Source: Macrostomum lignano
Lineage: Eukaryota
Direction of reading: 5' to 3'
DNA length: 64,000 nucleotides
NCBI GenBank assembly: GCA_002269645.1
Contig: NIVC01001129.1
Location: forward strand, 177,390-241,389
Every line of letters begins with the position of its first letter. Positions within the stretch are counted from its first letter, which is position 1. The notes below the pieces were generated by a model that saw only the letters and a list, made by a program, of their open reading frames with translations, was not told the origin of the DNA and searched no databases. Position numbers and translations under genes: made by a program. Shown here piece by piece: positions 6,425 through 36,000 of this stretch.

Positions 6425-7096
6425 TCTGCGAATAGTCTATGGTCAAGCCGCCCCCCATATTTGGATATTCTCAACGGGTTATATTTGGATGTACCCATTT
6501 GCAGATGAGCAGTCTGTATATTCCTGTATCAATGCGTTTGCGAGGATATTTTTTACGCTCACATCGTTACACGTTACACTTACATCGGCCGAATTGCATT
6601 GTTTGTTCCGCATGGGATCCTCGGGGCAAGCCTCTTCTTCGCTTGGCAGTGATGGCAGAGCATCATCGTTACCGCATTCAATGAATCGGATGAACTCCAT
6701 CAACTCGTTCATTCGAGGAATGAGGATGACAATCGAGGATGACAATCGGATGAACTCCTTCATACGCCTCGTCACGTCCACCCATACTCAAGTCGCTGAG
6801 AAAGTTGACCTCATTTCCATTCAAGCCGTCAATGCTTTCAATCGGCAAATTCGACCAATTTATCATTCGGATGAGCGGCATGAATAGAGGTAAGGGCAAA
6901 CAGAAGAAATATGAACATGTACCCTCTGCTGCAGAGTTCCAGCTTATAAGACCACAACTTCATTTAACCTGTTTCGTTTATTGTAATTTCAGACTGTTCC
7001 GCCTAACTTTTCGTTCCAGACGTTTTGTCTTTGGCCATCATTTTGCTTGCGCCAAGTGGAAAATGCCTATGACAAAAATCCCTAGAATCGCTTAGT
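6425..7096. mobile_element. MITE-like element with right TIR deleted (complete copy at 31694-32410)
   Basis: Left arm TCTGCGAATAGTCTATGGTCAAGCCGCCCCCCATATTTGGATA present. The ~67 bp containing the right arm seen at 32368-32410 is missing after GCTTAGT. Confidence 0.65.
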
Positions 7097-8494
7097 GAAC
7101 AATTCCCGTCTGGGAAGTTGTGTCCTAGCCGTTTTGTACCGTCCTCGATGCTATGGCAGTTGTGTGTGAAGCGTGACCTCTCGATAATCATACATTGTGC
7201 CTAGTCCCACTTACTACTCAGACTCATGCAGATCAGGGACTGTAGTAAAATTTTCCTGAGTAAATTTGAGTTTCTATCACTTTGCAAGCGTCTCAGGAAC
7301 ACCTCCTGACTAATACAAAGGCCAATAACTCCGTGAAGTGTCTGTATGTCGAAGGCTCCAAGACAATCAATTGACTACATACATTTCTTCTTTTTACTCA
7401 AAAACACTCTAGTGAAAAAAATTATCTTCAAAGATTAGGCGACTTTATTGTCAATTCTCTTTCACAATACGAGGTATCTATATAGGCGCACATGTGCTAC
7501 AAGCACTGGGATTTCTGTAAAGTCTGTTGCGATCCTATTCCCAAAAGATTTCTGAGCTTGAAAGTAGTTGTTTTTTCCACAATTGCGAACCTTCCATGGT
7601 TCTTAATACTCGTAGAAAAGGGCTCTTGAAAATGTTCCTACCGCATTGTCCTTACTTGGGGTGCATGACTTCAAGCAAGCCTATGAGAAACTAAAAGTTC
7701 CTGCGAATCAAATTTTATTCAATTTTAACTATAAAGCGAATCTCCTAAAGAACTTCTTGTTGATTTAAAGTAAGTATGCTCGATTCCAACAAATTCATAT
7801 CTCTCTCGTATTTCTCAGACGCATCCGATTCTGTGTGAGTTTCTTTCTCCCATTTCTAAGAATTCCTTCTGAGTTTGGACAGGTGATGTCGCCAGACGAA
7901 ATTCTCACGAGTTTGAAATTCTTGCCTCGCATTGTTTTCAGTTCCAGCTATTGACACTACTGGAATGGGCACTAGTTTGGTTGGTCCAAGCACTAACAGG
8001 CTCTAAGAATATCTTCTGACATAACTAAGGTGGATGCATGCATGGTGCCTTTTATGTCCATTGACATGCATGCAAACTTATACAAGATGGTACAGATTTC
8101 ATCAGCTAAATATCCCTTTGAGGCTGTCACCCATGACAAGCTCACCCACACAAATCGTAAAATAGCTACAAGTTAGATTTGCTGGTGTCATCGCAGATTC
8201 ACATTTAGATTTTAGTAAAGCTGCACCTACTTACTTACTGTGAGTAGTGTGCTTAGGAAAAGTATTTAAAGAGTGTATTTGCTCAAAGCATCTCCGACTG
8301 TAAATATTATTGATTGCATATAGTTTGTCAGAAAAGTCAAGGCATGCGCAATAATAATAATACTACGCACACGCACTCATTCACACGCTCACGCACTCAT
8401 TCACACGCTCACGCACTCATTCACACGCACTCATTCACACGCACACGCACTCATTCACACGCACACGCACTCATTCACACGCACACGCACTCAT

Positions 8495-9115
8495 TCACAC
8501 GCTCACACAGGGTTTAAAGCGGCCTGAATTTCTAATCGTCAGGCATGTACACTCTCTGTGCCTTGGCGGTTGGCCCTCGTGGCTGTGAATCGCACGACAA
8601 TCCGCCGGCCAATTATTGGTGCACACAAGCCCCAAATGAACTTGGTGCTGGCGCCCCTGGTGCTGGCGCTCCTGGTGCTGGCGCCCCTGGTGCTGGCGCC
8701 CCTGGTGCTGGCGCCCCTGGTGCTGGCGCCCCTGGTGCTGGCGCCCCTGGTGCTGGCGCCCCTGGTGCTGGCGCCCCTGGTGCTAAAGCCACTGGTGCTA
8801 AAGCCACTGGTGCTAAAGCCACTGGTGCTAAAGCCACTGGTGCTAAAGCCACTGGTGCTAAAGCCACTGGTGCTAAAGCCACTGGTGCTAAAGCCACTGG
8901 TGCTAAAGCCACTGGTGCTAAAGCCACTGGTGCTAAAGCCCCTGGTGCTGGCGCACCTAAATGAGTCTGAATTTTGGTTCGATTCGGTGCTTGTGTGCTC
9001 AAAAATTGGCCTTTGGGGTTGTCGTGCAATTCATGCACATGATGGCCAGCCTCCAAGGCACAGTGGGTGTTGCAGAGAGGATTAGAAATTGTCAAGGCCG
9101 CTGTAAACTCTGTAT
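8495..9115. mobile_element. Fold-back module 1: inverted copies of a dispersed repeat flanking a 15-bp minisatellite
   Basis: Left arm ...TGTGCCTTGGCGGTTGGCCC...GCACGACAA...GGCCAATT...GCACACAAGC matches the reverse complement of 8975-9110. Array 8644-8958 holds ~21 units of GGTGCTGGCGCCCCT and GGTGCTAAAGCCACT. Confidence 0.75.
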
Positions 9116-13486: not shown

Positions 13487-16400
13487 ATGAAAACGTTGAA
13501 TTTAATTCTGCTTCTGCTTTTCTGCTTCCAGTTCGCTGAAAATGTGCTTGGTAAGAATTGATTCGATTTAGAAAAGCTGTACTTTTTGTCTCAGAACTCT
13601 GTTATTAGTGAACTGCTATTAGTAGACTGCTATTAGTAGACTGCTATTAGTAGACTGCTATTAGTAGACTGCTATTAGTAGACTGCTATTAGTAGACTGC
13701 TATTAGTAGACTGCTATTAGTAGACTGCTATTAGTAGACTGCTATTAGTAGACTGCTATTAGTAGACTGCTATTAGTAGACTGCTATTAGTAGACTGCTA
13801 TTCAGAGAAGCATAAGGTATAACGCCTATTGATTTCAACTCTGTATTTTATGAATCCGTGCTTTTAATAGCCTAGCATAGAGTATAATTTGTTAGACTTG
13901 ACCAGAGTTAGGCTAAATTGGAAAATGTTCCGTCAAATGTCTGCAGGTGCCGAGAAAATCACCGTTCCCAAAAACAAGCCTGCTAAGCAGTCTTCGAAGT
14001 TCCACTCAAACGACGACCCAGCCCTGGCCAACAACGGCAACACCGGCGGCTCCCTTGTGCGCCTGTCGAACTGCTTCGAGTGCGCGAACAACGACCCGCT
14101 ACCCTGGTGGATGGTTGACATGGGCGAGATCTACTTTGTCCACCAGGTGAAGGTGTGGAACAGAATCAACTGCTGTGCTGACCGGTTTCGGCAGGTTAGC
14201 GTTGGTAAGTTGCTGCTGCGAAGCTTAGATTGCTGCATGGCTTTGAGATAGATCGATCGGGCAAAAAACTACAGTAAATAGAGAAAAATTTACTGGTGTT
14301 GTATCAAGAAATGTTTTGCTAAGCAAAAGCAAGCTACAGGGCAACGATGAAAATACATGTTTGTTAACGCTTCATGTTCAACGGTATAAACGGAGATCTA
14401 GAACACTCAGATTTACTCAAACTCAGAAACATTGCACAAACAATAAAATATTAGTATTTATATTCAATCAGAAAATGTTTGTGGAATTCCCAAGTATGTG
14501 CCAAAAAGACTTTTGATAGGGCATTACTTTACTTTGCAGCAGAGGGCTTTCAGGGATGAAATGCTATATGCGTTTGAGCTTTAAATGGATGCTTGTAAGA
14601 GGTCCCTTTCATGTAGTAACACGTGCGATGGTCTAAAATTGTGGTAGCATTGTCCATGCATGTTGCCGATTCTCTGTACGGGGTCCGAATTCGGGCTTCA
14701 AAGCAGCTTATCCATGACGAGCTTCACGATCTGAGCTTCACGGGCTGAGGACTTCACCTTGCAGTCCACCTTTCTGGACCTCAACAGAACGGGAGTGTCC
14801 CAGGAGGTGCAAGGTGGCAGTCCGATGGGAGAACATGATGTACATGATCAAGCGAGTGAGTTGCTCGTGCGGGCCACTTGATTAAAAAGCACGGTATCGA
14901 AGGTACCAATTTTTTTCGTAAAAACGAATGTTGAGCACCATGCGTTTCAATTTGTTGACAATGGCGTGCAATGCGATTTAGATAGAACGGTCCAGACCGA
15001 AAGACGCGCCGGTTGCAGGGGGGGGGGGGGGAGACGCCAGAGCCCATCCGTTCTATCAGTTTAACAGTAGAAAGACCACGCTATTTTTCCACATGGGGAA
15101 AGACCATGGGATCCCGGCTCGTCAGGGCCGCGTGGTGGCACTCCGTTGAATTCGAAGGTCCCGAAGGTCGTCCAGACAGAGCTGAATGCTGAACATGGTG
15201 CAGGACCATTGTATAATACGCAGACATACCTGGTTTGGTCCTTGATAGAAAAATCACGATGTTGGCGGTGTCAGCTCGTCGGGGCCGCGTGGTGGCCCTC
15301 CCTTAAAGGTCCCGAAGGTCGCCTGTATGTCACAGGTCAGCCTAGAGGGTCACCCTCGTCCATTTCATTCACCGATTATGTCTACTGACTGAATGCTGCA
15401 TGCAGAAGAGGATTCTTCCACTTCAGTTTTGGAAACGCAGCCGTCTCTGGGATACCGATCAGGTGCTTTTGTTGAAGGTCCCGACAGTCGCCGCCGATGC
15501 TCCAGACGGTGATGAAGGGGACCCTGGTGCCTGAGATGCTGAGAGCAAAAGTCCCTGCGACTGATATGCATAGTTTGTTGAGCCGACGTGGTTTCATGAT
15601 GAAATTTTGTGAGCAGAAAATTTTTTGCCATGTTGGTGGTTTTTGCCACCAGACACCCCGAGGAGAATCGCTGAATATCTCAACGATGCCGATTTTTGTG
15701 ATTCTCGAAGTTGCTTCATCAAATAGAGCGGAAATTTTTTAGCCCGTGTTCTAGATTTTCATGGCAATTGGTTGAATATTCTTGGAGATCGAGACAAAGG
15801 AAAAATTTGTGTATTTGAAATACACCCCATGGTCTTTCTACTGTTATAGGCGATAACGCTAGGGAGGATCGATAGAGAGAAATACAGTACAAGCGCATAA
15901 AACACTGCACAAGGCGAGTATGCATGTAATGTGATGAGTTAGAGACTCTAAGAAGAACAGATTGGTGTTCGCTGGTGTCAGATTGATATTGCAGGAAGCT
16001 TTGGCAGGGTGATAGTCTCCCTTCCATGGTTTTGAGATAAAGACAATCGTGGCTTCCTGCCAGCCACGGTTGCTGAGGAGGTCGAGGAACCTGTCATTTT
16101 CACTGCAGCCTGCTGCTTGAAGATTTTTTCAAGAGTCGAAGAGTTTCCTCTTTCCTGCCAATCAAATTCTCTCCATATTCCAGGTGTGGCTAAAAATCCC
16201 ATCGTATGGACGTCCTTCAACCAGGATCTGTTCGAACGCTGCGGCTACTGGCCCGGGGTGGCCACGGTATCTGATAATCCCATCATATTAACCTGCCCCA
16301 GCCCCATCGGAGGCAGGTACCTGGCCGTGTACAAAAACACCAGTGGACTGAGCGACGGCAGTGCCAGGCTGCACTTTTGCGAGGCTGACATCCTGGCAGG

Positions 16401-18110
16401 TTAGATGGGCCTTTGTAGCTTTGGTAGCTCTTTTGTAGTATTCTGGCAGTTTAAATACAGAATTAGAAAATTCTAACAAAAGAAGCGTCTCTCCAGTCAA
16501 TAAAAAATCACTTCTGAAATCTATCCAGAAAAAAATCTGAATTTTGCACCACGGATGTCTTCAGATACTAATCACAGTTACATAGTTTTGATAGAGCTGA
16601 TTGATGGGCAACTCGGGCCACTGCAGAGGCAGATTCCAGCCAAGGTCTCTGTTGTGTATTGAACGCGTGGGTTTTTTATGCGCGTGAGAATAAGAATTGC
16701 GGAGTCTCGACTGACTCCGCTGCTTTACATTTATATTTGTTAGTAAATGAAGCGTGCACGTTGGGTGTATACACCTGGCCGATCGGCTAAATGTTAAGCA
16801 ATGCTTGAGTTGAATACAATATTGTTGAAACATAAATACGATACAACTGAAGTACTCCATACTAGTACTTAGTACTCACGCCACAACAGTCTCCCTGAGG
16901 AGTGGTTCCTCGACGTTTCCTCGAAATTTAAAATAAGTTGATATAGCTCGTAAAAGACAAGCATGTTTCACTCAAGGACTACTAGACTAGAAGGACACTT
17001 GCAAATCGTGCAAAAATGGTTGAAGGCCGATTATTAAAATGTCTGTATCTCCGAATCGATTGCATGTAGGCTACTTTATTTCGACAGATTGTTCAGATTT
17101 TTGTTCCCTACTGAGTAAGTTTAGTTTCCCACTAGATGTAGATGCTAGAAAAGACTGTACAATCGAGACACCTATATTTTGGGGCGTTTGGTATTTAAAT
17201 CTGTAAGTTTAGGAACCAAATTAATAAAGTGGTGAAAATCTTAGGCGCAAGTTTTTGTGAATACGCTCGTAGTGTCATTAGTGACATTAGTGACGTTTCT
17301 GAAAATATATCGGAGCCTGGAGATCATATACAGAACCCGCATACTTTGGCCTATAGCTACCAGTATCCTTTAAAAACTTGCTTATAAGATGGCCAGTCAT
17401 CAAAAATGAGTGAGAGGAAAAAGTCAAACATCACGAAGCAGACTCCTCTTTTAACATTCTGTTCTAGACAATCTGTAAATTGAAGTGGCAGTAGAATTTA
17501 GCAAGCAAGAAAGAGTTTTGTTTAGTTTATTTGCTTATAATGTTCGCACGGATTCGAACCATGGATGCTTACGCCACTGAGCTACTCGACCTCTTTCACC
17601 TTCGGGGCCAGGAGCATTACTCGTACAGCAATGCATCCATCCATCGATAGGCATCTCGGGCCACTGTAAAAGTATATATATGTCAGCGACGTCGGATTGC
17701 AGTACAGGTTACCTGGTTAAAATTCATGTATTCGAAATTCAGCAGCTGCCGTATTGAATTTAAGTCACAAATATCGGCATCCTTATAGTTCGCTCTGTAC
17801 TAATACAACCTAAAGTTATTAAAACATTTTTTGAATAAAAATTTCAGTCCTAAAGCCGTCCATGATCTCGTTCGAGGCTAAGGTCATTCCGCCAAGGTTC
17901 TCAACGAAGCCAGCCGACTCGCAGCTCGATGGCTCTCCAATTGCTGTCAAGTCGGACATCGCCTGCGTGCGTGAGTGCGGCAGCCACCCAATGTGCCTCT
18001 ACACTTTGTACAAGCAGGGCAACTGCTGGCTGTTCTCATCTGGCAGCATCTCCGATAGCTTCATCAGCATCCTGAGCGGTGGAGATGCCAAGTTTATGCA
18101 GCTGAACTAA
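13487..18110 (+). CDS. Secreted F-type lectin + PAN/apple protein, copy 2 (266 aa)
   Basis: Exons 13487-13550, 13947-14204, 16184-16399, 17848-18110; same sizes and phases as copy 1; GT-AG intact. Confidence 0.9.
13612..13802. repeat. 14-bp minisatellite, ~13.6 copies, intron 1 of copy 2
   Basis: Same unit as 1977-2097. Confidence 0.95.
15062..15846. mobile_element. MITE-like element (paralog of 3349-4134)
   Basis: Same 17-bp inverted ends. Confidence 0.6.
16650..16888. mobile_element. 239-bp solo LTR in intron 3 of copy 2
   Basis: TGTTGTG...CACAACA ends with a perfect 5-bp TSD GTCTC (16645-16649 / 16889-16893); absent from copy 1 intron 3 (~5145). Confidence 0.9.
17541..17594 (-). other. 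Truncated tRNA-derived (SINE-head-like) fragment
   Basis: Minus strand TAGCTCAGTGG (A box) and GGTTCGAATCC (B box) with the anticodon arm missing; not a functional tRNA. Confidence 0.4.
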
Positions 18111-18734
18111 TCATCAAATATTCGGACACTTTTAATTGTAACTAACTGAACTCGAATAATCAAACATTTCTTTAAAACTTTTACGCAGAGCTTATAGCTA
18201 ATGCTGAAAGAATAAAAAAGTGTCTCTATCTACTTACAAATTTTAATGCTGAATAATACCCTCAATGGCAGGTTTATCTTATCCAGAGTAAAGTGCGGGA
18301 AGCAGTCAAATATTTGACAAATTATCTGTTCAATCGGATTTCCAATTTTACAACAATTTTGTTTCTAATTATTTCAAATTTGTAATAACACTATCGAAGA
18401 CAGCTAGTTAGTAAGTACGAGTGCATTGCGTTTTCTAAACGGAATTTTTCATTTTTTAGGATTCGATGCATGGCTTATCATACCGATCTTTTGTCTTTGT
18501 CCAGATGATAAAGAATGGCGTCGTTTCAAGATAAAAAATTCCTAAAATTGTTGGTCCGACCGGGCGTAGCTTGGTTGGGTGTTAAACCAGTGGGGCGTGG
18601 CTCTTGTGCGTTGGTGCGGGGGGTGGTGGGCCGGGCCTTGGTCACGTGCCCGCGGCCTGGGTGGCGTTTATTTAATACGGTGCGGGCTGTCGCTGACCCG
18701 CCAAGCGCGTATTGATTTTTTTTCAATTTTTGCA

Positions 18735-19853
18735 ATGGCTGACCGCGACAAACTTATGCACCTGAGCAAGGTGGCTCTGCAAGCCTTGTGTGCCCACGCT
18801 AACATAAGCAGTCGGGGCAACAAGGCCGACCTTGTCAGCGCCCTGCTCGCAGCCCCAGACCAGTCGTGGACAGATTCGCTGTTGCAGAACATGGAGCAAT
18901 CTGAGCAAGAAGCCGAAGCAGACGACAACATCAGTACGGAGGCGGCTCGGGAGTCGGCGGCGGGCCTGGACGAGGACATCGCGAAGGCGGAGAAGGAGAT
19001 CAGACTGTTGTAGCTACGCAAGGAAGCCGCTCAACTCAAGAGGGAGATCAGAGATCTGCAGCGCGAGTGTCCATCCGCGCGTCCTATGAATCGCGGTGAG
19101 TGTGCCAAGCCTGCTGGCCCCAGTTACTTTCCTGATGGGTGTGATGATGCTGAATTAGACCAAGCTGATAATGGCAATGAGCTGCTTGACAGATTGTTGT
19201 CACAGAACAGGGCCAATGAACGGATGGAGTGTTCTGGTAGACGTAAGGCTCTCCTGGTTCGTGATTTCCTCGACGGCTTTGAGCAGGAAGAGGTGCTGGC
19301 TAATGGTTCTGGTGGCCGAATCACTTACAAGAGCAGAAAACCTAATCCAGATAGCATCACGGCAGCGCAGTATTTGGTAGGCAATTGCAGGCTGATGATG
19401 CAGATGATCAAGGATGGTGCCCTGGTGACTAGTAGAAATGGAACTGCCGACACGACTGATTTGATGAATTACTTACGCTACTCAATACAGATTGGCGAGC
19501 TGTTTGACGCGGGCTTCGGCCTTGCGCAGGTGAATCGTTTTGACGAGGACTACCGCACTAGGCAAGCTGAAACTGGCATGCGATGGGGCAAGGAGTCTTT
19601 CCAACTCGTTGCTAAGCACTTAATCAGAACTGGAACTCCAGCAAACCATGGAGTCAGCAAGTCTTTGCCCCAGCCACGGCAGCAGCGTTTTCAAAAACCA
19701 ATAGACCCCAAGAGCCTCAGAACGCCAGACGGGGAAGAGATCTGCTTGCACTTTAATCGCCGGGGGTGCTTCCGGTCGAGCTGCAAATTCCGGCACGTCT
19801 GCCGCATCTGTTTCGAGGCCCACCCTGAGGCCAACCATTCGACAAAAAACTGA
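18735..19853 (+). CDS. Gag-like ORF1 (SAP-like N-terminus, coiled coil, C-terminal CCCH/CxxC zinc finger), with one in-frame TAG
   Basis: ORFs 18579-19013 and 19086-19853 share a frame and are separated only by TAG 19011-19013. Motifs LMHLSKVALQALCAHANISSRGNKADLVSAL and CLHFNRRGCFRSSCKFRHVCRICFEAH. Confidence 0.8.
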
Positions 19854-19861
19854 AGTCTGCG

Positions 19862-21671
19862 ATGCTCTGTTTTAATCCTAAAATTTTGCCTAATGCTCAG
19901 CCTGCTTTAAATTTTAACAATCCTGTCGTTGGCAGTGCAGGGGGTCGCCTGCGTTTTTGTTCGTGGGATTCTGAGCTTGAGAATGACCCTGATCGGAATT
20001 TTATCCTAGACGGCATCGCAAATTGTTTTCGCATTACTGATGGCAAAGGGCTTTGTGAGACTTTTAATGCCAATTACATGTCTACTTCTACTTTTCATCG
20101 CGCTGTTGAGCTGCAAATTAAGGAAGAGATTGAGAATGGCAGGTATTTGATTGTGCCTAAGAAGCCTACGATGGTCAGCCCTCTGGGAGCAATTCCCAAG
20201 GATAACGGGAAGGTTCGACCTATTCATGACTGCAGCACGCCTCCGGGCTACTCGGTAAATGACCATTATACGAAGAAGCTGAGCCCCAGGTTTGAGTCCG
20301 TCAAGAAGGTTGCAGCCTCTATCGGCAAGGGCTGGTTCATGGCAAAGCTTGACTTGTCGCAAGCTTACAGAAGCGTGGCGATCCATCCGGATGATTACCA
20401 GGCGACCGGCATTGGTTGGCGCTTTAAAGGCAACCGTGATCTGACATGGCTTGTCGACACCCGGCTACCCTTTGGTAGCTGCGCCTCGGTCGAGATTTTC
20501 TACCGGCTTACTCAAGCGGTCAAGAGGATGATGGTGCGACGCGGCGTGGCCAATATTTCGGTTTACCTGGATGATTTTCTGGTTGCGGCCGAGAGCGAGA
20601 AAGAGTGTATGGATGCTCTGAAAGAGCTGATTAAGCTGGTTCGCCAGTTAGGTTTTGGTGTCAATTGGAACAAAGTGGTTGAACCTACGCAATGCTTGGT
20701 GTATCTCGGTGTGAAGATTGATACTGTCCGTGGAGTTCTTAGTGTGCCGGCGGAAAAGTGTGAGGAAATGCGCACCACACTGCTTAACTTTTCGCAGCGC
20801 AGGCGTCTCTCGAAACGACAGCTTTCGTCGCTTTGTGGCAAGCTCAGCTGGGTCGTCCAGGTGGTGCACGCTGGGAGTTGCTTCCTAAGACCCCTGTTCG
20901 ACCTGCTTAATGCCCTGGAAAAGCCACGTCACAAAGTGCGAGTGTCCGCTGACACTGCGTATTTTACTCTGGTGGCGAGGTGCCCTTCTGAAGCTGCCTG
21001 ATTTTCAGCTTTGGAGAAGTTGCACAAACGGCTGGATCATCGAAACCGATGCGAGCAGTGCTGGTGGCGGAGCCATTTTGCGCAATGGTAGCGGTATGGT
21101 GGATTGGCTGTACGTCAATTGGGATCTGGATGCTGGAGGAAAGTTTAAAGACAAGCATATCACGTACAAAGAAGCTATTGTTCCGCTACTGGCTATGGTT
21201 CGCTGGGGTGCCTTTTTAAATGACAGTTCGGTCGTGGTCTACTCCGACTCTAGTGCGACTGTTGGCATGATTAACAGAGGTTGCTGTCGGCAGCCTGAGT
21301 TGCAGCCGCTGTTCCAGACTGCCATGCTCATTGCTGTTAGGCGTGGGGTTGAGGTGCGCGCTTTTCATGTGCCTGGCTGGTACCATGTCTTTGCGGACCC
21401 GTGCTCTAGGCTGCACGCCGTGGACAAAATGCGCGATTTTTTATTTCGGGTGTATGGCTCTGTTGACTGCTGTTTTAACGAGATCGCTAGCCATGCTTTC
21501 TGCCCTGCTGCCTCCATTTTTCTCATTTTACAGGCCCTCCGCGCCAGACTCCCGACCGCCTCAGCAAGCGTTGCGCGTTTATCCTGGGCAATGCCTACGC
21601 GCCCCGCACGAAGCGGAGTTACCGGTCGCAGCTCGCGTCTTGGCTGCGATTTTGCAATTCCCGGCACCTGA
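19862..21671 (+). CDS. DIRS-type reverse transcriptase + RNase H (one +1 frameshift at ~20962-20965)
   Basis: RT: KLDLSQAYRSV, RLPFG, YLDDF. RNase H: TDASSAGGGA, HITYKE, YSDS, ADPCSR. Removing one T from TTTT 20962-20965 joins ORFs 19862-21001 and 20910-21671. Confidence 0.9.
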
Positions 21672-22534
21672 CGCCGCTGCGGGCAGAGCCTGTGCACGTG
21701 GCTGAATACCTGGCCGAGCTGTCCACCCGGCTGTCAGCCTTTCGGAGTTGCCAGGCGTATGCTAACGCGGTCTCGCTGTACTTCAGAGCTCTCGGCCGGC
21801 CGGACCCGTGCGAGTCGTCGATGGTTAAGCTGGTGCTTCGTGGTCTTCGCCGGTGTCTCAGTCGGCAGCAGCGCTCAAGGGAGCCATTCAGAGTCACGGA
21901 TCTCCTCAAGCTACACGCCCACCTGGACCAACGTCTGAAGAGTGACATCGCGTTCTGGGCAGCAGTTCTGGCAGCCTGGTGGGGTATGCTGCGAAAAGCG
22001 AATGTGACGACGCAATCGGGGCAGCTCGATCTGTGGTGCGACCTGGCAGCATCGAGCATCGTCTTTTCAGAGTACGACTGTGAGCTCACTGTGCGGCATT
22101 CGAAGACCAACCAGTTTGGCGATCGAGTTCAGCGAGTGTTTCTTCCGAAACTGCCTGATGGAAGCTTGGGTGTCCTGTGCCCGTTCCGTGCGCTCGAGCG
22201 GCAGCTACGGACAAACCGAATCGGCCTGGCGCCGCGTCCGGTTCACCTGTTCTCCACGTGGTCGTCCGCGGGATGGTTGCCTCTGACGGCTAGCAGGTTT
22301 GATAGCCGGCTTCGTTCGCTCTGCACATCGGCGGGTTTGTCGCCACGCGAGTTCACTGGCCACGGGCTGCGGCGGGGCGGCGCTACGGCAGCCATGCGGC
22401 TCGGTGTTCCACTGCCGATGATCAAGAAGCTGTGCGACTGGAAGGGCAACTCAGTGTTTCGCTATCTATCTGTTCGGGACTCGGATGCCAGGGCGGCTGT
22501 GCATGGCTTGGCTCGTCGGGTTGGCGCGCTCTAA
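21491..22534 (+). CDS. Tyrosine recombinase (ORF3)
   Basis: Frame open from 21491. N-terminal AYAPRTKRSY...WLRFC; catalytic R (MLRK), K (HSKTNQ), HGLRR, W and RYL residues present. First in-frame ATG is only at 21821. Confidence 0.92.
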   Translation, partial: PCFLPCCLHFSHFTGPPRQTPDRLSKRCAFILGNAYAPRTKRSYRSQLASWLRFCNSRHLTPLRAEPVHVAEYLAELSTRLSAFRSCQAYANAVSLYFRALGRPDPCESSMVKLVLRGLRRCLSRQQRSREPFRVTDLLKLHAHLDQRLKSDIAFWAAVLAAWWGMLRKANVTTQSGQLDLWCDLAASSIVFSEYDCELTVRHSKTNQFGDRVQRVFLPKLPDGSLGVLCPFRALERQLRTNRIGLAPRPVHLFSTWSSAGWLPLTASRFDSRLRSLCTSAGLSPREFTGHGLRRGGATAAMRLGVPLPMIKKLCDWKGNSVFRYLSVRDSDARAAVHGLARRVGAL

Positions 22535-23939
22535 CTCTCTCTCTCTCTCTATGTCGAACTTTCTGGTTTGGGTTGGGCCAGGCTCGAACCTGCGCCTCTC
22601 GTGCCAACTGCCTTGACTTCGTCTCACTGGTTTAATAACGTCAGTTAGTTGTTGCTGCTAAATTTCTGCAACAAAAATTGCTGCATTTGCTTTGCAATCG
22701 TAATTTGTTCCTCCCACTTACTACTCAGACTAATGCTGATCAGGAACTGTAGTAAATTTGGCTGAGTAAATTTGAGTTTTCCTCACTTAGAAAGTGTCTC
22801 AGGATCCCCTCGCTAGTTTTCTATTCTTACAAAGGCCAATAAATCTGTGAAGTGTCTGCACGTCGAAGGCTCCAAGACAATCAGAAGATTTCGACTACAT
22901 TTCTTCTTTTACTCAAAAACACTCTAGTGAAAAAAATTATCTTCAAAGACTTTATTGTCAATTCTCTTTCACAATACGAGGTATCTATATAGGCGCACAT
23001 GTGCTACAAGCACTGGGATTTCTGTAAAGTCTGTTGCGATCCTATTCCCAAAAGATTTCTGAGCTTGAAAGTAGTTGTTTTTTCCACAATTGCGAACCTT
23101 CTATGATTCTTAAGACTCGTAGAAAAAGGCTCTTGAAAATGTTCCTACCGCATTGTCCTTACTTGGGGGTTACTGACTTCAAGCAAGCCTATGAGAAACT
23201 AAAAGTTCCTGCGAATCTAATTTTATTCAATATTAACTATAAAGCGAATCTCCTAAAGAACTTCTTGTTGATTTAAAGTAAGTAGCTCGTATGCTCGATT
23301 CCAACAAATTCATATCTCTCTCGTATTTCTCAGACGCATCCGATTCTGTGTGAGTTTCTTTCTCCCATTTCTAAGAATTCCTTCTGAGTTTGGACAGGTG
23401 ATGTCGCCAGACGAAATTCTCACGAGTTTGAAATTCTTGCCTCGCATTGTTTTCAGTTCCAGCTATATTGACACTACTGGAATGGGCACTAGTTTGGTTG
23501 GTCCAAGCACTAACAGGCTCTAAGAATATCTGACATAACTAAGGTGGATGCATGCATGGTGCCTTTTATGTCCATTGACATGCATGCAAACTTATACAAG
23601 ATGGTACAGATTTCATCAGCTAAATATCCCTTTGAGGCTGTCACCCATGACAAGCTCACCCACACAAATCATAAAATAGCTACAAGTTAGATTTGCTGGT
23701 GTCATCGCAGATTCACATTTAGATTTTAGTAAAGCTGCACTAACTTACTTACTGCGAGTAGTGTGCTTGGGAAAAGTAATTAAAGAGTGTATTTGCTCAA
23801 AGCATCTCCGACTGTAAATATTATTGATTGCATATAGTTTGTCAGAAAAGTCAAGGCGGACTGTGCATAACCAATATTTATAATATTAATAATACTACTC
23901 ATTCGCACTCATACACACGCACTCATTCACACGCACTCA

Positions 23940-25430
23940 TACACACGCTCACACAGGGTTTAAAGTGACCTGAATTTCTAATCGTCAGGCATGTACACTG
24001 TGCCTTGGCGGCTGGCCCTCGTGGCTGTGAATCGCACGACAATCCGCCGGCCAATTATTGGTGCACACAAGCCCCAAATGAATATGGCGCTGGCGCCCCT
24101 GGTGCTGGCGCTCCTGGTGCTGGCGCCTCTGGTGCTGGCGCCCCTGGTGCTGGCGCCCCTGGTGCTGGCGCCCCTGGTGCTGGCGCCTCTGGTGCTGGCG
24201 CCCCTGGTGCTGGCGCCCCTGGTGCTGGCGCCCCTGGTGCTGGCGCCTCTGGTGCTGGCGCCCCTGGTGCTGGCGCCCCTGGTGCTGGCGCCCCTGGTGC
24301 TGGCGCCCCTGGTGCTGGCGCCCCTGGTGCTGGCGCCCCTGGTGCTGGCGCCCCTGGTGCTGGCGCCCCTGGTGCTGGCGCCCCTGGTGCTGGCGCCCCT
24401 GGTGCTGGCGCCCCTGGTGCTGGCGCCCCTGGTGCTGGCGCCCCTGGTGCTGGCGCCCCTGGTGCTGGCGCCCCTGGTGCTGTGCTGGCGCCCCTGGTGC
24501 TGGCGCCCCTGGTGCTGGCGCCCCTGGTGCTGGCGCCCCTGGTGCTGGCGCCCCTGGTGCTGGCGCCCCTGGTGCTGGCGCCCCTGGTGCTGGCGCCCCT
24601 GGTGCTGGCGCCCCTGGTGCTGGCGCCCCTGGTGCTGGCGCCCCTGGTGCTGGCGCCCCTGGTGCTGGCGCCCCTGGTGCTGGCGCCTCTATTGCTGGCG
24701 CCCCTAATCGCGTCTGAATTTTGGTTCGATTCGGTGCTTGTGAGCTCGAAAATTGGCCTTTGGGCTTTTCGTGCAATTCACGCACATGATGGCCAGCCTC
24801 CAAGGCACAGGGAGTGTTGCAGAGAGGATTAGAAAGTGTGAGAAGATTTCGCTTTAGCACACTAGAGAGAGGGGAAAGGAGAGAGAGAATTAGGTCTAAG
24901 TGTCTAAACGCTCGAACTCCCACTTCCAGACACTAAGTCTGGGAACAAAAATGTAGTGCACTTACTGTTGCAGGCTCCTCGTCTTTGTCGGGCAGGTTCT
25001 CCGAGCTCGTGTCTTCAAATCTTCTTCTCCGGAGGAATCCCTCAGAGATGTAGCCTCGAGTAGCCTCTGCAGTAAGCTCAAGATGTTTTGAGGCTGCTCC
25101 GAGTCTGAGATTTTTAGCTCGGATTTTGGCTTGTATTTATAGGAAAACTTCGTGAAAAAACAGATTATTTTAGTAGGTGACAGTTTTGCGTTTTAGAAAT
25201 TTGACCCCTATAGAATACATTAGGTTTGAGCATCGAATACCATATTCAGAGTTCTAATTTTAAATGTTGCACAAGATGGTCATTTGTTGCTTTCATGGTC
25301 TTAAATACAGTGTGACAATTTGCAGTTTTTAGCTTTTGAGTTTTTACGTTACTACTTATAGTACTTTACTTTGTACCGTATTTGGAGATCTCTACAAGTC
25401 AAGGCCGCTGTAAACACTGTATTTGGGCGA
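23940..25430. mobile_element. Fold-back module 2; 15-bp array 24086-24705 (~41 units); right arm interrupted by a solo LTR
   Basis: Same arms as 8495-9115. Confidence 0.75.
24837..25396 (-). mobile_element. 560-bp solo-LTR-like insertion
   Basis: Minus strand TGTAGAGA...TCTCACA ends with an internal CCTATAAATAC. Absent from the unit-1 arm (9085 AAATTGTCAAGG). TSD ambiguous (AG or AAGT overlap). Confidence 0.7.
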
Positions 25431-26040
25431 CTGTAAAACAATTATTGTACAAATTATCAATGCATCATACAGCGTTTCAAATGTAAATAATAAATATGAA
25501 CAAGATAAAACCGATGCTTTTAAATCTGCATGCACAACGTGTTCGCGCATCCACACAGCTTGCTGATCCTCTATTTGATGTAGCAACTGACCGGAAGCTT
25601 CCAGTTTTGTAGCTGCTGTTACTGCATTGTCGATCAGACAAACAGCCTGAGGCAGCACAGAGCAAGCTAAATATGAGCTAGAGATGAGAACTTATCGCGA
25701 AGAAGAAGTTGCATTAGCTAATAGCAGAAACTGAAGCAAGCAGTCATGGTGACAGGATGCTTGCTTTTCTTGAAAAACTTATCTAAAAGGCGCACTAATG
25801 GATCCACACGCAGTTTAATGGGCAAACAAAGTTTGCCATTATGTTTGCTCGCTAACTGAAAGCTAGCCAAGCTTTAAGCGTTTTAGTGTTCTGAATGGCT
25901 TCCGCTGACTGATGGACAGCTAGATAAGACAAACCGGAGAGATTGGAAGACAATTTTGCTACTTTTGAGCATTCACGATTGCATAGGAGTTTAGTTACTC
26001 CAGTATCCTGAGAAACTGGTGCGAAGTTTCTACTTTACGC

Positions 26041-26081
<41 letters not shown>

Positions 26082-26082
26082 A

Positions 26083-26129
<47 letters not shown>

Positions 26130-26168
26130 ATTTCTACGCTAACTATCTATCTATCTATCTATATATGG

Positions 26169-26254
<86 letters not shown>

Positions 26255-26255
26255 A

Positions 26256-26304
<49 letters not shown>

Positions 26305-26328
26305 AAACTACACCCATAAGGATACATG

Positions 26329-27233
26329 TGTAGTGACTGGCTGCTAACTAGCTATTCAGCAGCATTCACTAGCTTTCCCTAAGGGTGCTGTGATCCGCTG
26401 CACAGTAGCTCAGTCCACCTGATCTAGTGAGAGAGATACCCTGTGCTGGGCCTAAGTGTTTACTGCCCGATGACTCATCGCCTGAGCAGGCGCGGGCAGC
26501 CACACTCAATGTCTTTCCACTCGCGCTGAGGAGGCGTAGCAGGATGACTCATCACCTGCGCGGAGTGTAAGGGCTGCCTAGAGGGAGTAAACAGGATGAC
26601 TCATCCGCCCATGTTATATTTTTAGCACAGAAAAGCACGTGACTGTGCACGCACACTGTGCGTGGCCACTGACCTTGAGTCACGCCACTGCTGCGTGACA
26701 GGCTTGCCTTATTTGGAAGTTGGCCTTGAATCACGCGTCGCTCGCATGATTTTAGTGACCAAATAAGGAAGTTTCACGCGCTCACCGCATGAAACTCACG
26801 TGACTTTTGGGAGTCCGCTCGGCTATAAATACGGAGCATCTGCGAGCCATTTTTCTCCAGATCGCGTCGTCCTGCCTGAGCTCGACCGGAGCTGCCTCTC
26901 TGCCTCCGAGCTCTCCTCTCTCATTTCAGGTTTTACAGGTTTTCAGGTTCGAGCAGCATTTAACTAAGACGATCGACTGTCGAGACGTTTTTCAGATTTG
27001 CCTTTGCTCCGAGCGACTTCATTATTTTATTTCAGGTGACGGATAGACAACTCTGCCGACGCGTCGAGTCCGCACACCAAGGTGGCAGCAACCCTACCAA
27101 GTCAAGGCTAACGTTTTAGGTTCTTTTTCAGGCAAATCGATAGGTAGTACAACGGTACTACCTAGCTACTTCAGGAGCAGCGGGTTCTATTTCTAGGAAC
27201 ACCTTCAAGAACTCGGGAAGGAGTAGTACATCA
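26329..27233 (+). mobile_element. 905-bp solo LTR with TATA box and four AP-1-type sites
   Basis: TG...CA ends with a 4-bp TSD CATG (26325-26328 / 27234-27237). TATAAATA at 26824. TGACTCA at 26471, 26545, 26597 and TGAGTCA at 26676. Confidence 0.85.
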
Positions 27234-27820
27234 CATGCCTGAAGATTAGAAAGTCAGGGTCGCTGCACACCCTGAGCAAGAGTGTGCATGAGTGCTGTGC
27301 CTGCGTACAGTATTGGCGCGCTTGCATGTGCGCAGGAGCCGGCGGAATGGGCAGAATTGCGATCAGCGCTGCTTGTGGGATGATGTCGCCGAAGGCTTTG
27401 CGCTATGATGCCAACAACCTTTCTTAACTCTTCTTTTTGATAAGTTGATACCGGTATTCTCAGTCACTGGATTTACAGAGCTAGACAATTATTGGCGTTT
27501 CACTCGTGTTGGTTTCAAACACCTGAATAAACGTTAAATACCGGAAATCAATCGTCCAAAATATTATTGAATTTTCATAAATTATTTGCCTTTGCAGAAA
27601 CAGAGCATATCGAGTCCACTACTGATCGTACATTTAACGTGGTCAAGGATGCTATGCTTCAAATATTTCAACCCAATTATAATTCCCCCTCTTTGTGATT
27701 GGTTTAGAGAACATGTATTTAAGTTTTGACACGACGCATTTCTGATTCCCTTTGGAAGCCATTTCCATTTGAAGCATAAAAATTTATTCTGAAAAATCAT
27801 TGCTTCAAAAAGCTAGGGAA

Positions 27821-30800
27821 ATGAAAACGTTGCCAATGATCTTCAATTTAACTCTGCTGCTGGTTTTCTGCTGCGATTTCGCTCAAAAAGTGCTTGGTAG
27901 GTTTGATTTAACCGCGTCTATCTATCTGTCTATCTATCTATCTATCTACGCTATCTACTATCTATAGCCAGGACCTGCACCGGAGCGGTTACGAAAATTA
28001 GATTTCTCGGTAGTTGCACGTACTCTTTTGCACTACTTGAGTAGTCTGATTTTCGTTCGGCATGGCTGGTTCCAGCAGGTGGTTTTGTCTCGCATAGAGA
28101 CGCCTAACCGCAGTCACTTCTGTGAAACTTGTCTCTGCCTGGCTGAAAGCTTGTAATGAGTGAGTAGGCTGGGTTGGAGGGTAATAGTGGATCGGGAGGG
28201 GCTGTGGGTAGCTGTATAGGAAGGCAGGCCTATACCTGTACCAAGGTGCTCTGACGGTATCCCTCAGGCGCCCTCTGAGCGTACAGCCAGCGACCCTATT
28301 AAAGCTGGAGTGTGCCAGAACCAGGACTGAGTCTGAGCAGGACGAGACCGTTGGCACGGTCATAATAGAAATGGCGGGTTGGCGAAGCAAAGGGTGAAAT
28401 AGTCCCGGCGATTAGCCCTCCTGCCGCTTCAAAGATAAGAGACTGTCTGTTGGCAAGAGTACCCGGGGTTTAGTTGGGGGGGAGGCTCCTTCGGGTTGCC
28501 ACGGCCGTGGGGGCGGTCTTATGACCGGTGTTTTGGCCTATCTAACCCAGGAGAAGGCACGGGCTCCCCTGAATGGTTCACTCTTCTCCCTCTAGCCTCG
28601 GGGAGGTTTATGATTTGTACCCGGGGGTGGTGGGCGGTCGGCCCCAGCATGGTAGCCACGGCTCTAGGCCTTCGGGCCATCCCTAATAGGCTTGGGTCTA
28701 TCTAACCTGGTTTTTGGGCACGGGCTTCCTGACTGGTATGTCGTTCCGCTGTCACTGTCCCCGGGGAGGTTTGGTTTTTTTGATACAGCCCTGTACAGTC
28801 CTCTATAGTCTAACTTGGCTTTTAGTGTACATTAGTACACTCCCTAGTAGGAAACTTATTTATGTCTAGTGGCGTAAGAGCCTATTTCAATGGCTGAGGC
28901 GCCGGAGCACTTATTTAGTTAGTTAGTTAGTCGTTCGGCATGGCTGGTTCCAGCAGGTAGTTCCTCTGGATAAAAGCGCTTACCGCGCCCATTGGCTTTC
29001 CAGCTGCCTTAATCGTTTCCGGTGATCTTGTGTGCGTGCTTTCAGCTTGATTGGCTGCGGCTTGGTGACAACCGGCAAGAGGCATTGCTGCCCATTCCAC
29101 CGACTCCCCTGTGCAGGCACACAAACGCTTGGATATATACGCACAGGCACTCACTCACACAGGAGTGTACAGCGGCCCTAACTTTATTTATCGTTTTGTC
29201 TTGGGGCTTTGGCCCTCAAGGCCATAAAGTGCACGAGCAGAGCCAAGCCGAGATTCCAATTTAGCCCCAAACTGATGTGACTGCACTTGGAATCGAGCCT
29301 GGGCCGCTGGCACACCAGAGCGCCGCGACAGACCACTGGGCTCCGCCCCTCCTAGACTGCTGTTAGTAGAAGCTCGAGATGGGACGTCCAATGAGAAAAT
29401 ATTTCAACTCAGTTTTCTATGAAGAGGTAGCTTCGACAGATCGAATTGAGATTGATACACAAGAATAGGTAGCTTTGGGCAGATTTAACGAATTAGACTA
29501 AATAAATAAATATACTGTCATATGTGCATCGTCTGCAGGTGCCGAGAAAATCACCGTTCCCAAAAACAAGCCTGCTAAGCAGTCTTCAAAGTACCGCTCA
29601 AACGACGACCCAGCCCTGGCCAACAACGGCAACACCGGCGGCTCCCTTGTGCGCCTGTCGAACTGCTTCGAGTGCGCGAACAACGACCCGCTACCCTGGT
29701 GGATGGTTGACATGGGCGAGATCTACTTTGTCCACCAGGTGAAGGTGTGGAACAGAATCAACTGCTGTGCTGACCGGTTTCGGCAGGTTAGCGTTGGTAA
29801 GTTGCTGCTGCGAAGATTTTTTAATCCATTGTTTTACATTAACTACGAGTACATTGCAGCGATGGCAAAAATTTAGGTTTGATTTTTTTCTTTTTCACTA
29901 GTGTACATGTATCTTTTACTAATCGAAATGCTGAGAGCGGCATAAAGCTTGCATTTTGTGTTGGCATATTGGTAGCAATTTCGAGTATTTTATGTCAGCT
30001 CCATTAATCCGAATCAGTTCGACGAGTCTGACTGGTCAATATGCTATAGACGATTATCTTTTTGAAAGGGCAAGAATCACCTGGCAGGCTGGAGCTCAAT
30101 GCTTTATGCCTGCCGCTTGAGAGATTGTTGGTAATTACGAGCGTAATATTAACTTTGCACAAATATTAGCCTGCCTCCAAATTTCCAGAGATTTTTCCAT
30201 AAGAGACTTATGGGATAGTCTTCGTACTTTGAAGATTCGGGCACCTGGCTCAATGTTTCTACTTTGCTAACCCCTGAAATATGCCTCCCTAATCAAATCC
30301 TCTCTATATTCCAGGTGTGGCTAAAAATCCCATCGTATGGACGTCCTTCAACCAGGACCTGTTCGAACGCTGCGGCTACTGGCCCGGGGTGGCCACGGTC
30401 GCTGACAATCCCATCGTGTTCACCTGCCCCAGCCCCATCGGAGGCAGGTACCTGGCCGTGTACAAAAACACCAGCGGACTGAGCGACGGCAGTGCCAGGC
30501 TGCACTTTTGTGAGGCTGACATCCTGGCAGGTTAGATGGACCTTTGTACGAGCGTAGCTTTGGTAGTTCCTTCATATAATGCTCTGGCAGTTCAAATATA
30601 GGAATAATGGGCTACATCACCGTCACTGAGTGTTACTTGGGCTGATTAATAGGCAACAAGATTAAGACGCGCCGGTAGATACTGAGCTACCGTATTTAAT
30701 TTAAGTCACAATTATTGGGTATTTCTAGTTCGCTCTTGACTATCACCTTATTTTATTAAAAATATTCTTAAAAATTAAATTTCATTCCTAAAGCCGTCCA

Positions 30801-31048
30801 TAATCTCGTTCGAGGCTAAGGTCATTCCACCAAGGTTCTCAACGAAGCCAACCGACTCGCAGCTCGATGGCTCTCCGATTGCTGTCAAGTTGAACATCGC
30901 CTGCGTGCGTGAGTGCGGCAGCCACCCAATGTGCCTCTACACTTTGTACAAGCACGGCAACTGCTGGCTGTTCTCATCTGGCAGCATCTCCGATAGCTTC
31001 ATCAGCATCCTGAGCGGTGGAGATGCCAAGTTTATGCAGCTGAACTAA
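27821..31048 (+). CDS. F-type lectin + PAN gene copy 3; exon-4 acceptor mutated (probably lectin-only product or pseudogene)
   Basis: Exons 27821-27896 (MKTLPMIFNLTLLLVFCCDFAQKVL), 29539-29796, 30315-30530 and [30786-31048]. The acceptor reads TTCAT (30781-30785) instead of TTCAG. Confidence 0.8.
28053..28958 (+). mobile_element. ~850-bp insertion ending in (TTAG)n and bounded by a 28-bp direct repeat, intron 1 of copy 3
   Basis: TCGTTCGGCATGGCTGGTTCCAGCAGGT at 28053 and 28931, with TTAGTTAGTTAG just before the second copy. Paralog at 37725-38650. Confidence 0.55.
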
Positions 31049-31260
31049 TCATCATATATTCGCCAACTAACTGAACTCGAATAATTAAACTCTTCTTTAA
31101 AACTTTTACGCAGAGCTTTTAGCCTTTGAAGAATACTAAAAATGTCTCTATTTACCTATAAATTTTTTATGTAGAATAACCTGAGTGGCAGGGTTACCTT
31201 ATCCAGAGTAAAGTGCATGAAACAGTCAAGCAGACATGCAGCTACGATCGTATAGTTAAT

Positions 31261-31398
31261 AAATTAAAATAGCCTAAAGCCTGATCCGGAAAATTTGCAG
31301 TTTTCCCATATAAGTTTCGACGCTGACTTGCCAGAATTGTAGGAGTTCACTTACAACATACAGACAGACAAACATCGCGTCAGTTTTTGTATTAGGGG
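31261..31398 (+). mobile_element. 138-bp Helentron-associated (HINE/DINE-1/Lep1-like) insertion
   Basis: Absent from unit 1 (6130 TTAAT|ATAAGT). Contains ACAGACAGACAAAC and ends TTGTATTAGGGG(AT); no TSD. Confidence 0.5.
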
Positions 31399-31693
31399 AT
31401 AAGTACGAAGCACGAGTGCCTTGCATTTTCTAAAGGGTTTTTTCAGGACTTCTCATAGCCGATATTTTTTGTTTGTCCAGATGTTAACAAATGGAGTCGT
31501 TTTAAGATAAAAAATTCCTAAATATTTTAAAGTCTGTGATTTTTCTGCAACAAAAATTCCTGCCTTGGCTTGTAAATCGTAATTGTGCCTCGATTCGTTT
31601 GGGCCACAAACGATTGTGCTGACGGAAATTGTGAACTAAGTAAATTTTTGCGCGCCTTTCAGGCATCGAAACAGGAATACAACAGATTGCTTA

Positions 31694-32410
31694 TCTGCGA
31701 ATAGTCTATGGTCAAGCCGCCCCCCCATATTTGGATACCCATTTGCAGATGAGCAGTCTGTATATTCCTGTATCAATGCGTTTGCGAGGATATTTTTTAC
31801 ACTCACATCGTTACACGTTACACTCACATCGGCCGAATTGCATGGTTTGTTCCGCATGGGATCCTCGGGGCAAGCCTCTTCTTCGCTTGGCAGTGATGGC
31901 AGAGCATCATCGTTACCGCATTCAATGAATCGGATGAACTCCATCAACTCGTTCATTCATTCGCCTCGATGACAATCGAGGATGACAATCGGATGAACTC
32001 CTTCATTCGCCTCGTCACGTCCACCCATACTCAAGTCGCTGAGAAAGTTGACCTCATTTCCATTCAAGCCGTCAATGCTTTCAATCGGCAAATTCGACCA
32101 ATTTATCATTCGGATGAGCGGCATGAATAAAGGTTAGGGCAAACAGAAGAAATAGGAACATGTAATCCTCTGCTGCAGAGTTCCAGCTTATAAGACCACA
32201 ACTTCATTTAACATGTTTCGTCTATGGTAATTTCAGACTGTTCCGCTTAACTTTTCGTTCCAGACGTTTTGTCTATGGCCATCATTTGGCTTGCGCCAAG
32301 TGGAAAATGCCTGACACAAATCCCTAGAATCGCTTAGTCTCGTCTGGCAAATATAACCCGTTGGGAATATCCAAAGATGGGGGGCGGCTTGACCATAGAC
32401 TATTCGCAGA
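31694..32410. mobile_element. 717-bp MITE-like element with ~43-bp terminal inverted repeats
   Basis: 31694-31737 is the near-perfect reverse complement of 32368-32410. Confidence 0.8.
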
Positions 32411-33754
32411 ACAATTCCCGTCTGGGAAGTTGTGTCCTAGCCGTTTTGTACCGGCCTCGACGCTATGGCAGTTGTGTGTGAAGCGTGACCTCTCGATAGT
32501 AGAATTGTGCCTAGTCTCACTTACTACTCAGACTCATGCAGATCAGGGACTGTAGTAAAGTTTTCCTGAGTAAATTTGAGTTTCTATCACTTTGGAAGCG
32601 TCTCAGGAACACCTCCTGACTAATACAAAGGTCAATAACTCCGTGAAGTGTCTGTATGTCGAAGGCTCCAGGACAATCAATTGACTACATTTCTTCTTTT
32701 AACTCAAAAACACTCTAGTGAAAAAAATTATCTTCAAAGATTAGGCGACTTTATTGTCAATTCTCTTTCACAATACGAGGTATCTATATAGGCGCACATG
32801 TGCTACAAGCACTGGGATTTCTGTAAAGTCTGTTGCGATCCTATTCCCAAAAGATTTTTGAGCTTGAAAGTAGCCATTGTTTTTTCCACAATTGCGAACC
32901 TTCTATGATTCTTAAGACTCGTAGAAAAAGGCTCTTGAAAATGTTCCTACCGCATTGTCCTTACTTGGGGGTTACTGACTTCAAGCAAGCCTATGAGAAA
33001 CTAAAAGTTCCTGCGAATCTAATTTTATTCAATTTTAACTATAAAGCGAATCTCCTAAAGAACTTCTTGTTGATTTAAAGTAAGTAGCTCGTATGCTCGA
33101 TTCCAACAAATTCATATCTCTCTCGTATTTCTCAGACGCATCCGATTCTGTGTGAGTTTCTTTCTCCCATTTCTAAGAATTCCTTCTGAGTTTGGACAGG
33201 TGATGTCGCCAGACGAAATTCTCACGAGTTTGAAATTCTTGCCTCGCATTGTTTTCAGTTCCAGCTATTGACACTACTGGAATGGGCACTTGTTTGGTTG
33301 GTCCAAGCACTAACAGGCTCTAAGAATATCTGACATAACCAAGGTGGATGCATGCATGGTGCCTTTTATGTCCATTGACATGCATGCAAACTTATACAAG
33401 ATGGTACAGATTTTATCAGCTAAATATCCCTTTGAGGCTGTCACTCATGACAAGCTCACCCACACAAATCGTAAAATAGCTACAAGTTAGATTTGCTGGT
33501 GTCATCGCAGATTCACATTTAGATTTTAGTAAAGCTGCACTAACTTACTTACTGCGAGTAGTGTGCTTGGGAAAAGTAATTAAAGAGTGTATTTGCTCAA
33601 AGCATCTCCGACTGTAAATATTATTGATTGCATATAGTTTTTCAGAAAAGTCAAGGCGGACTGTGCATAACCAATATTTATAATATTAATAATACTACTC
33701 ATTCGCACTCATACACACGCACTCATTCACACGCACTCATACACACGCACTCAT

Positions 33755-35667: not shown

Positions 35668-35724
<57 letters not shown>

Positions 35725-35725
35725 A

Positions 35726-35770
<45 letters not shown>

Positions 35771-35824
35771 ACGCTATCTATCTATCTATCTATCTATATA
35801 TGGTATCTATCTATCTATATATGG

Positions 35825-35922
<98 letters not shown>

Positions 35923-35923
35923 A

Positions 35924-35976
<53 letters not shown>

Positions 35977-36000
35977 AAACTACACCCATAAGGATACATG

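Follow-up and report, generated by a model that had tools for sequence, protein, structure and literature searches.

Gene models and conserved splice sites point to a spliced Gag-recombinase fusion in a Ngaro retrotransposon family of Macrostomum lignano

The window examined here, 64,000 nucleotides (nt) of Macrostomum lignano DNA (contig NIVC01001129.1, positions 177,390 to 241,389), holds a Ngaro tyrosine recombinase (YR) retrotransposon at 18552-22636, with its frames in the order gag, reverse transcriptase (RT)-RNase H, and YR last; the element and all features given below lie on the + strand. The locus raises the question of how the recombinase is translated, a step that in YR retrotransposons has so far been assumed to be a frameshift for the last open reading frame (ORF). 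The YR frame (21491-22534, 347 amino acids) is open from 21491, and its first Met is codon 110, at 21821, as an earlier sequence-only reading of the locus had observed. That reading proposed expression by splicing onto the Gag N-terminus, and its donor, its acceptor, the phase 1 of both sites, and the 2438-nt intron were all borne out by recomputed coordinates. We consider it very probable that this family has a spliced RNA joining the first 120 gag codons to the YR frame, with the Gag-N/YR fusion likely the working recombinase.

The phase-1 donor (CGCG/GTGAGT, 19093..19101, cut 19095/19096) lies in gag, and a polypyrimidine tract with a phase-1 acceptor (...TTTTACAG/G, 21512..21534, cut 21533/21534) lies at the start of the YR frame. 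They delimit a GT..AG intron of 2438 nt (19096..21533) containing the Gag core, the zinc finger, RT, and most of RNase H. Coding exon 1 (18735..19095) is the Gag N-terminus, 120 codons plus 1 nt (361 coding nt), comprising a SAP domain, an acidic linker, and a long helix, while coding exon 2 (21534..22534, 332 codons) encodes a complete Cre-like tyrosine recombinase. By scores that are rough, being calculated from approximate splice-site frequencies, which is a weakness of the case, the acceptor (10.3) ranked first among the 249 sense AGs of the element (runner-up, 3.7), and the donor ranked second both among the 49 GTs of gag and among the 248 GTs of the element.

The window copy itself is dead. 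A premature stop at gag codon 93 (19011-19013), a position open in 16/16 aligned sister copies, precedes the donor in frame, so exon 1 is broken and this copy cannot make the fusion, a defect that the sequence-only reading overlooked. Its pol is also frameshifted near 20957, where 19 of 21 aligned copies differ from it, and the end repeats A2 and B2 are missing. For comparison we took 34 stretches from the 41 genome matches to the acceptor region, most of them 98-99% identical. The donor was unchanged in all 13 fully aligned copies and in 3 partial ones, and the acceptor AG/G was kept in 19/19 fully aligned copies and in 1 partial copy, the other stretches not being aligned there. The conservation in other copies that the sequence-only reading had named as a check was therefore found, although among copies that are nearly identical it says little about selection.

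The junction itself is present in gene models derived from RNA. PAA89852.1 (453 amino acids) reads ...PMNR-G-PPRQ..., and its residues 1-120 and 122-453 correspond to both exons of sister copy L023 with 0 mismatches; it is exactly the fusion of 120 Gag codons and 332 YR codons (~453 amino acids) that had been predicted. PAA84308.1 (335 amino acids) also spans the junction, opening with MNRG-PPRQ, and in YR it is identical to L025, a copy with a stop farther upstream in exon 1. PAA72542.1 departs gag at the same donor, into different sequence, and the acceptor it uses was not found among the sequences collected. The unspliced 372-amino-acid Gag is annotated as well (PAA60543.1), as is a 237-amino-acid model beginning at an internal Met (PAA60541.1). 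From their names ("BOX15_Mlig"), we take these protein records to belong to the deposit described in PMC5730564. The M. lignano GenBank annotation combined STAR, StringTie, and TACO with a mapped de novo transcriptome and TransDecoder ORFs, and the portion of PMC5730564 available to us describes no ab initio step; reads were allowed up to 1000 mapping places each. The fusion records are therefore not independent and do not indicate which copy was transcribed. The presence of the junction in RNA is supported indirectly, through the RNA-derived gene models.

Could the join have arisen in DNA? Among the 41 genome matches to the acceptor region, none starts at the acceptor, and of the 43 donor-region matches (40 of 47 candidates scored) none ends at the donor. 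No genomic copy without the intron was thus found, and a DNA deletion does not account for the join. Thirteen Gag N-termini used as queries returned no further RNA-derived fusion, and no relatives were found among viral contigs. Six UniRef A0A1I8 entries (P0012, P0019, P0029, P0061, P0088, and P0140) had inconsistent joins and were not counted as RNA evidence. The sequence-only reading had named a junction in RNA as a check, and the gene models span it, but the 19095-21534 junction was not among the 15 of 27 joints listed in contigs of runs X1, X5, X6, and X18 (4 of 24 runs). Because contigs drop rare forms, a missing contig joint neither supports nor refutes splicing. Run X5 holds RNA, since one of its contigs joins host exons across 16400-17847.

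Both sites recur in distant relatives. From 150 matches we took 40 loci, which yielded 15 further families in the M. lignano genome (n = 16 with the focal family), with pairwise YR identities of 30-69% (median, 38%). When the best AG was chosen from a fixed 230-nt search interval per family, it was in phase 1 and 65-77 nt before a conserved Thr in 15/16 families and was the best AG of the entire element in 11/16; scores of at least 6 were reached in 13/16 families versus 3/96 control intervals in pol. On the gag side, 3 families had no gag assigned; each of the other 13 carries a phase-1 GTRAG donor 3-23 codons past the coiled coil, top-ranked in 10 of them. The amino acids preceding the donor are not conserved among families, and family L051 retains GTAAGT although the codon shifts from Gly to Arg. 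Both sites thus stay in phase 1 across distant families, which was a further check named by the sequence-only reading.

A second set came from 80 metagenome loci with hosts not determined, 12 of them unscorable (n = 68). The best AG was in phase 1 in 58/68, and in 41 of the 42 scoring at least 5, acceptor phase being compared here without a shuffle control; 52/68 elements have a phase-1 best AG 50-95 nt before the Thr. Since a phase-2 consensus donor would place a stop in gag, synonymous shuffles were used as the null for donor phase. Among 30 long metagenome loci, 20 have gag adjoining pol, and the top gag donor is in phase 1 in 20/20, a count that none of 300 shuffles reached (mean, 14.9; maximum, 19). 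Pooled with Macrostomum, the top donor is in phase 1 in 31/33 (shuffle mean, 23.2; maximum, 30), and the mean donor score in Macrostomum lies above all shuffles; related elements are not fully independent in these donor and acceptor counts. Long extensions of the YR N-terminus also occur in RefSeq models from amphioxus (Branchiostoma belcheri and a Branchiostoma hybrid), a hemichordate (Glandiceps), and a limpet (Patella), which place the Thr at about residue 150-228. For B. belcheri, ...NFTG-HHTQ in a partial model stands against ...PEKG-HHTQ in a long one, and the acceptor-like upstream frame ...NFTG resembles the flatworm ...HFTG.

How the YR frame lies relative to pol was compared in 50 elements chosen for an acceptor and a located RNase H, a set in which some frames may reflect broken copies. 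RNase H coding (Leu-Gln) was rejected as the only reason for conservation of the acceptor: pol passes through the acceptor open and in the Leu-Gln frame in 30/50, is in another frame in 11, and has ended before it in 9. The same set bears on the proposal of Poulter and Butler (2015), by which YR would be made mainly through a programmed -1 ribosomal frameshift at the end of pol, the splice being a minor side product. A 2026 newt paper quotes that review as calling frameshifting in the pol overlap the "probable" route of YR translation (PMC13003380, known to us in part), and in this respect the expression described for known Ngaro elements differs from that proposed here. The YR frame is indeed -1 to pol and overlapping in 32/50 elements, the focal family included, and contigs that span both sites unspliced would suit a frameshift too. 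Yet a slippery heptamer stands before the Thr in just 6 of those 32 and in none of the focal family, the YR frame is +1 in 11 elements and 0 in 7, and there is no pol/YR overlap in 7. The clear slippery site sits at gag/pol instead, and a frameshift leaves the conserved, phase-matched donor unexplained. We regard frameshifting as an improbable main source of YR; judging from the matching splice sites of distant relatives, splicing onto the Gag N-terminus is likely how such elements generally make their recombinase.

What the fusion would consist of was examined by domain search and fold modeling. Residues 7-38 (18753..18848) match the Pfam SAP domain (PF02037; E value 3.6e-5, just under the cutoff), and the match is stronger in 5/5 sister families scanned. 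None of 14 gags from other sources has a Pfam SAP match, so the SAP-like module proposed by the sequence-only reading stands for exon 1 here but is lineage specific, and the feature shared between sources is better described as a Gag N-terminal module. At six loci from other sources (L093, L098, L108, L111, L117, and L124), the Gag N-termini share a different small helical module, SAM-like by eye, which was matched to P0158 with E values of 6.7e-8 to 0.05. Residues 76-110 (18960..19064) form a long amphipathic helix, a predicted coiled coil whose Leu spacing is conserved in 13 families and whose predicted local distance difference test score (pLDDT) is about 85-94 over residues 81-110. Through these predicted modules, SAP may bind DNA and the coiled coil may oligomerize. 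The YR frame has Pfam matches to integrase N-terminal and catalytic domains, and the catalytic R, K, HxxR, W, and Y are conserved (R274, K311, H397-x-x-R400, W423, and Y431 in fusion numbering). Modeled with a 100-sequence alignment, the fusion reached a mean pLDDT of 87, with low confidence in SAP and a flexible junction; a single-sequence fold gave a pLDDT of 42. The model matches Cre (PDB 1ma7; E value, 1.9e-13; target TM-score, 0.77) over the core-binding and catalytic domains.

In this model, confident recombinase helices start at residue 127, shortly after the junction at 121, and the first in-frame Met, at 217, comes 90 residues later. A start there would lose the core-binding helices (residues 127-216), which counts against YR beginning at an internal ATG, the start that PAA60541.1 would otherwise illustrate; a non-AUG start belongs to the same alternative. 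So does use of the acceptor mainly as a spliced-leader trans-splicing site. A flatworm spliced leader ending in AUG would enter in phase 0, the frame of the RNase H tail and not of YR. In M. lignano, a large number of transcripts undergo trans-splicing (PMC5730564, in the portion seen), but the acceptor is in phase 1 in many other sources as well. Taken together, we find trans-splicing or an internal start extremely unlikely as the main route.

It may also be that the splice is real but regulatory or host imposed, diverting genomic RNA or giving a dominant-negative or unused fusion, with the working YR arising otherwise. The donor does appear joined to other sequence in PAA72542.1, the spliced RNA is unable to encode RT, and the function of the fusion is a predicted one. 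The retention of phase 1 at donor and acceptor alike, in families whose YRs share 30-69% identity and in other sources, nevertheless points to selection on an in-frame product, and in 42/67 elements no Met precedes the Thr by 10 codons or more. We give this alternative very little credence.

Several observations weigh against a spliced fusion as the source of the recombinase, or against its generality. PAA89852.1, PAA84308.1, and PAA72542.1 may rest on the same reads. In X5, X6, and X1, contigs run unspliced through donor and acceptor, one of them in X6 being a single 3.6-kb piece, so unspliced RNA or DNA is abundant in these runs. In six older copies (L031-L036; ~87-93% identical), a deletion extends to the acceptor or takes it out, and one of the 16 families (L071) has no acceptor. 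For Macrostomum considered on its own, the count of top donors in phase 1 (11/13) is not significant, being reached by 25/300 shuffles, and 2/20 metagenome top donors sit near the gag end. In 25/67 elements a Met does precede the Thr by 10 codons or more, so some elements may use ATG starts. Of the RefSeq extensions, just that of Patella matched gag N-termini, weakly (E value of about 0.01), and such models, known here as proteins alone, can be partly ab initio.

We infer the following scheme, in which the fusion would be translated and serve as the main recombinase. A single promoter in the 5' repeat A1 would drive a full-length RNA. Left unspliced, this RNA would be the genome and make Gag, which is annotated, and likely Gag-Pol, through a putative -1 frameshift or stop readthrough at the gag end. 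Splicing from the phase-1 donor just past the coiled coil to the phase-1 acceptor, ~70 nt upstream of the earliest conserved motif of the recombinase, would excise RT and RNase H together with the Gag core and zinc finger, and the YR frame, which has no start codon of its own, would receive one from exon 1. The N-terminal module common to both proteins might help to copackage the recombinase with Gag, tether it to chromatin through SAP, or both. Related elements across animals are predicted to use the same pair of sites with other exon-1 modules. The broadest form of the scheme, that across animals Ngaro-type elements make YR solely as a spliced Gag-N/YR protein, use three routes per element, with Gag from unspliced RNA, Gag-Pol by recoding, and YR by splicing, and carry an exchangeable Gag module (SAP and coiled coil here, others elsewhere) that packages and aims YR, is one we put at slightly below even chances. 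If true, it would offer a direct mechanism for ORF1 control of Ngaro target preference in Cafeteria, where loss of ORF1 alters that preference and the authors credited Gag itself (PMC8547959, in part).

How does such a fusion compare with known systems? Like Cre and other tyrosine recombinases, it has a core-binding and catalytic fold. Lambda integrase has an arm-binding N-terminal domain; unlike in Cre or lambda integrase, the accessory N-terminal module here would be derived from Gag by splicing. Retroviral and gypsy env and foamy virus pol are expressed from spliced subgenomic RNAs; env and foamy virus pol carry little or no Gag, and Copia splicing gives Gag alone. A spliced short gag RNA is described for Ty1/Copia (PMC5580714, in part). 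The Ngaro arrangement resembles that of long terminal repeat elements and retroviruses in that a full-length RNA is accompanied by a spliced one through which protein ratios are set. It differs in that splicing bypasses pol and attaches a domain of Gag to the enzyme of integration. The "env-like slot" of the sequence-only reading is no more than an analogy, because a whole 120-amino-acid domain is carried over. In the parts seen of PMC3783388, PMC9210276, PMC3266345, PMC8547959, PMC6681497, and PMC4157794, we found no passage on splicing of Ngaro-type elements, and a spliced Gag-N/YR fusion was not described in the literature covered, including parts of PMC5633606, PMC7192593, PMC9341512, PMC4495291, and PMC8629364; the founding Goodwin/Poulter papers (2004, 2005), Poulter and Butler 2015, Repbase, and supplements lay outside this scope. 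The finding identifies the likely natural form of the recombinase, including where its N-terminus truly lies. One implication is that annotations drawn from ORFs cut these recombinases short. The finding also provides a physical connection between Gag and the choice of target, and it introduces splicing as a further step through which a host could regulate such elements.

The element is assigned to the Ngaro type by its domain content, the position and strand of YR, split direct repeats, and lack of a methyltransferase. Its proteins match M. lignano entries at 97-100% identity. The 5' repeat A1 (18552..18724), which is the element start, recurs in sister copies as A2 right after B1 (22575..22636), giving the order A1-ORFs-B1-A2-spacer-B2, and split direct repeats are also present in several other families of the genome. 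This is the Ngaro layout in the parts seen of PMC4157794 and PMC7192593. The element is like the known Ngaro retrotransposons (order DIRS; zebrafish, sea urchin, fungi, Xenopus DIRS-53_XT, Cafeteria, and newt Bou1) in having gag, RT-RNase H without a methyltransferase, YR last, split direct repeats (A1...B1-A2-B2), and a short pol/YR overlap. No inverted repeats linking both ends of the window copy were found, just short chance pairs, and a DIRS1-like identity was rejected, with direct repeats in the place of terminal inverted ones; the DIRS label of the sequence-only reading is therefore replaced by Ngaro. A PAT-like identity, which would combine split direct repeats with a methyltransferase, was rejected as well, since the methyltransferase, for which the element proteins gave no Pfam match, is absent.

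The unspliced gag ORF (18735..19853, 372 codons), with a CCCH-type zinc finger at 19743-19823, overlaps pol (19829..21671), which encodes RT and RNase H. In sister copy L019, pol ends 135 nt past the acceptor, and the D..SR motif of RNase H lies 141 nt upstream of it, in keeping with the lack of a methyltransferase. A slippery heptamer just upstream of the gag stop (19844..19850) likely serves a -1 frameshift into pol, and such a heptamer lies 7-10 nt before the gag stop in 8 of the 12 families compared (L019, L046-L084). In the remaining 4/12, gag ends in CAY-TGA-CT, a readthrough-type context, and pol is in frame in the 3 whose open frames abut. The mode of Gag-to-pol recoding thus appears to differ among families, between a slippery site and a readthrough-type end.

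At least 16 Ngaro-like families are present in the genome, many with near-identical copies (150 of 552 candidates scored), which suggests recent activity. The older copies L031-L036 are possibly nonautonomous derivatives, L033-L036 also being without the start of pol. The absence of A2 and B2 from the window copy and L019 is consistent with B1-B2 recombination or truncation. Flanks vary between copies L011-L027 with no obvious target duplication, and the 3' flank is often A/T-rich. In the window, the element begins ~440 bp past the last exon of a host gene (13950-18110) whose exons are lectin-like (F5/8-type) and PAN-like, judged by eye. This gene lies in segmental duplications, with tandem duplicates at ~1600-9000 and 24300-40750. 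Long arrays of a 15-nt GC-rich tandem repeat occur at 24050-24720 and 33900-34450.
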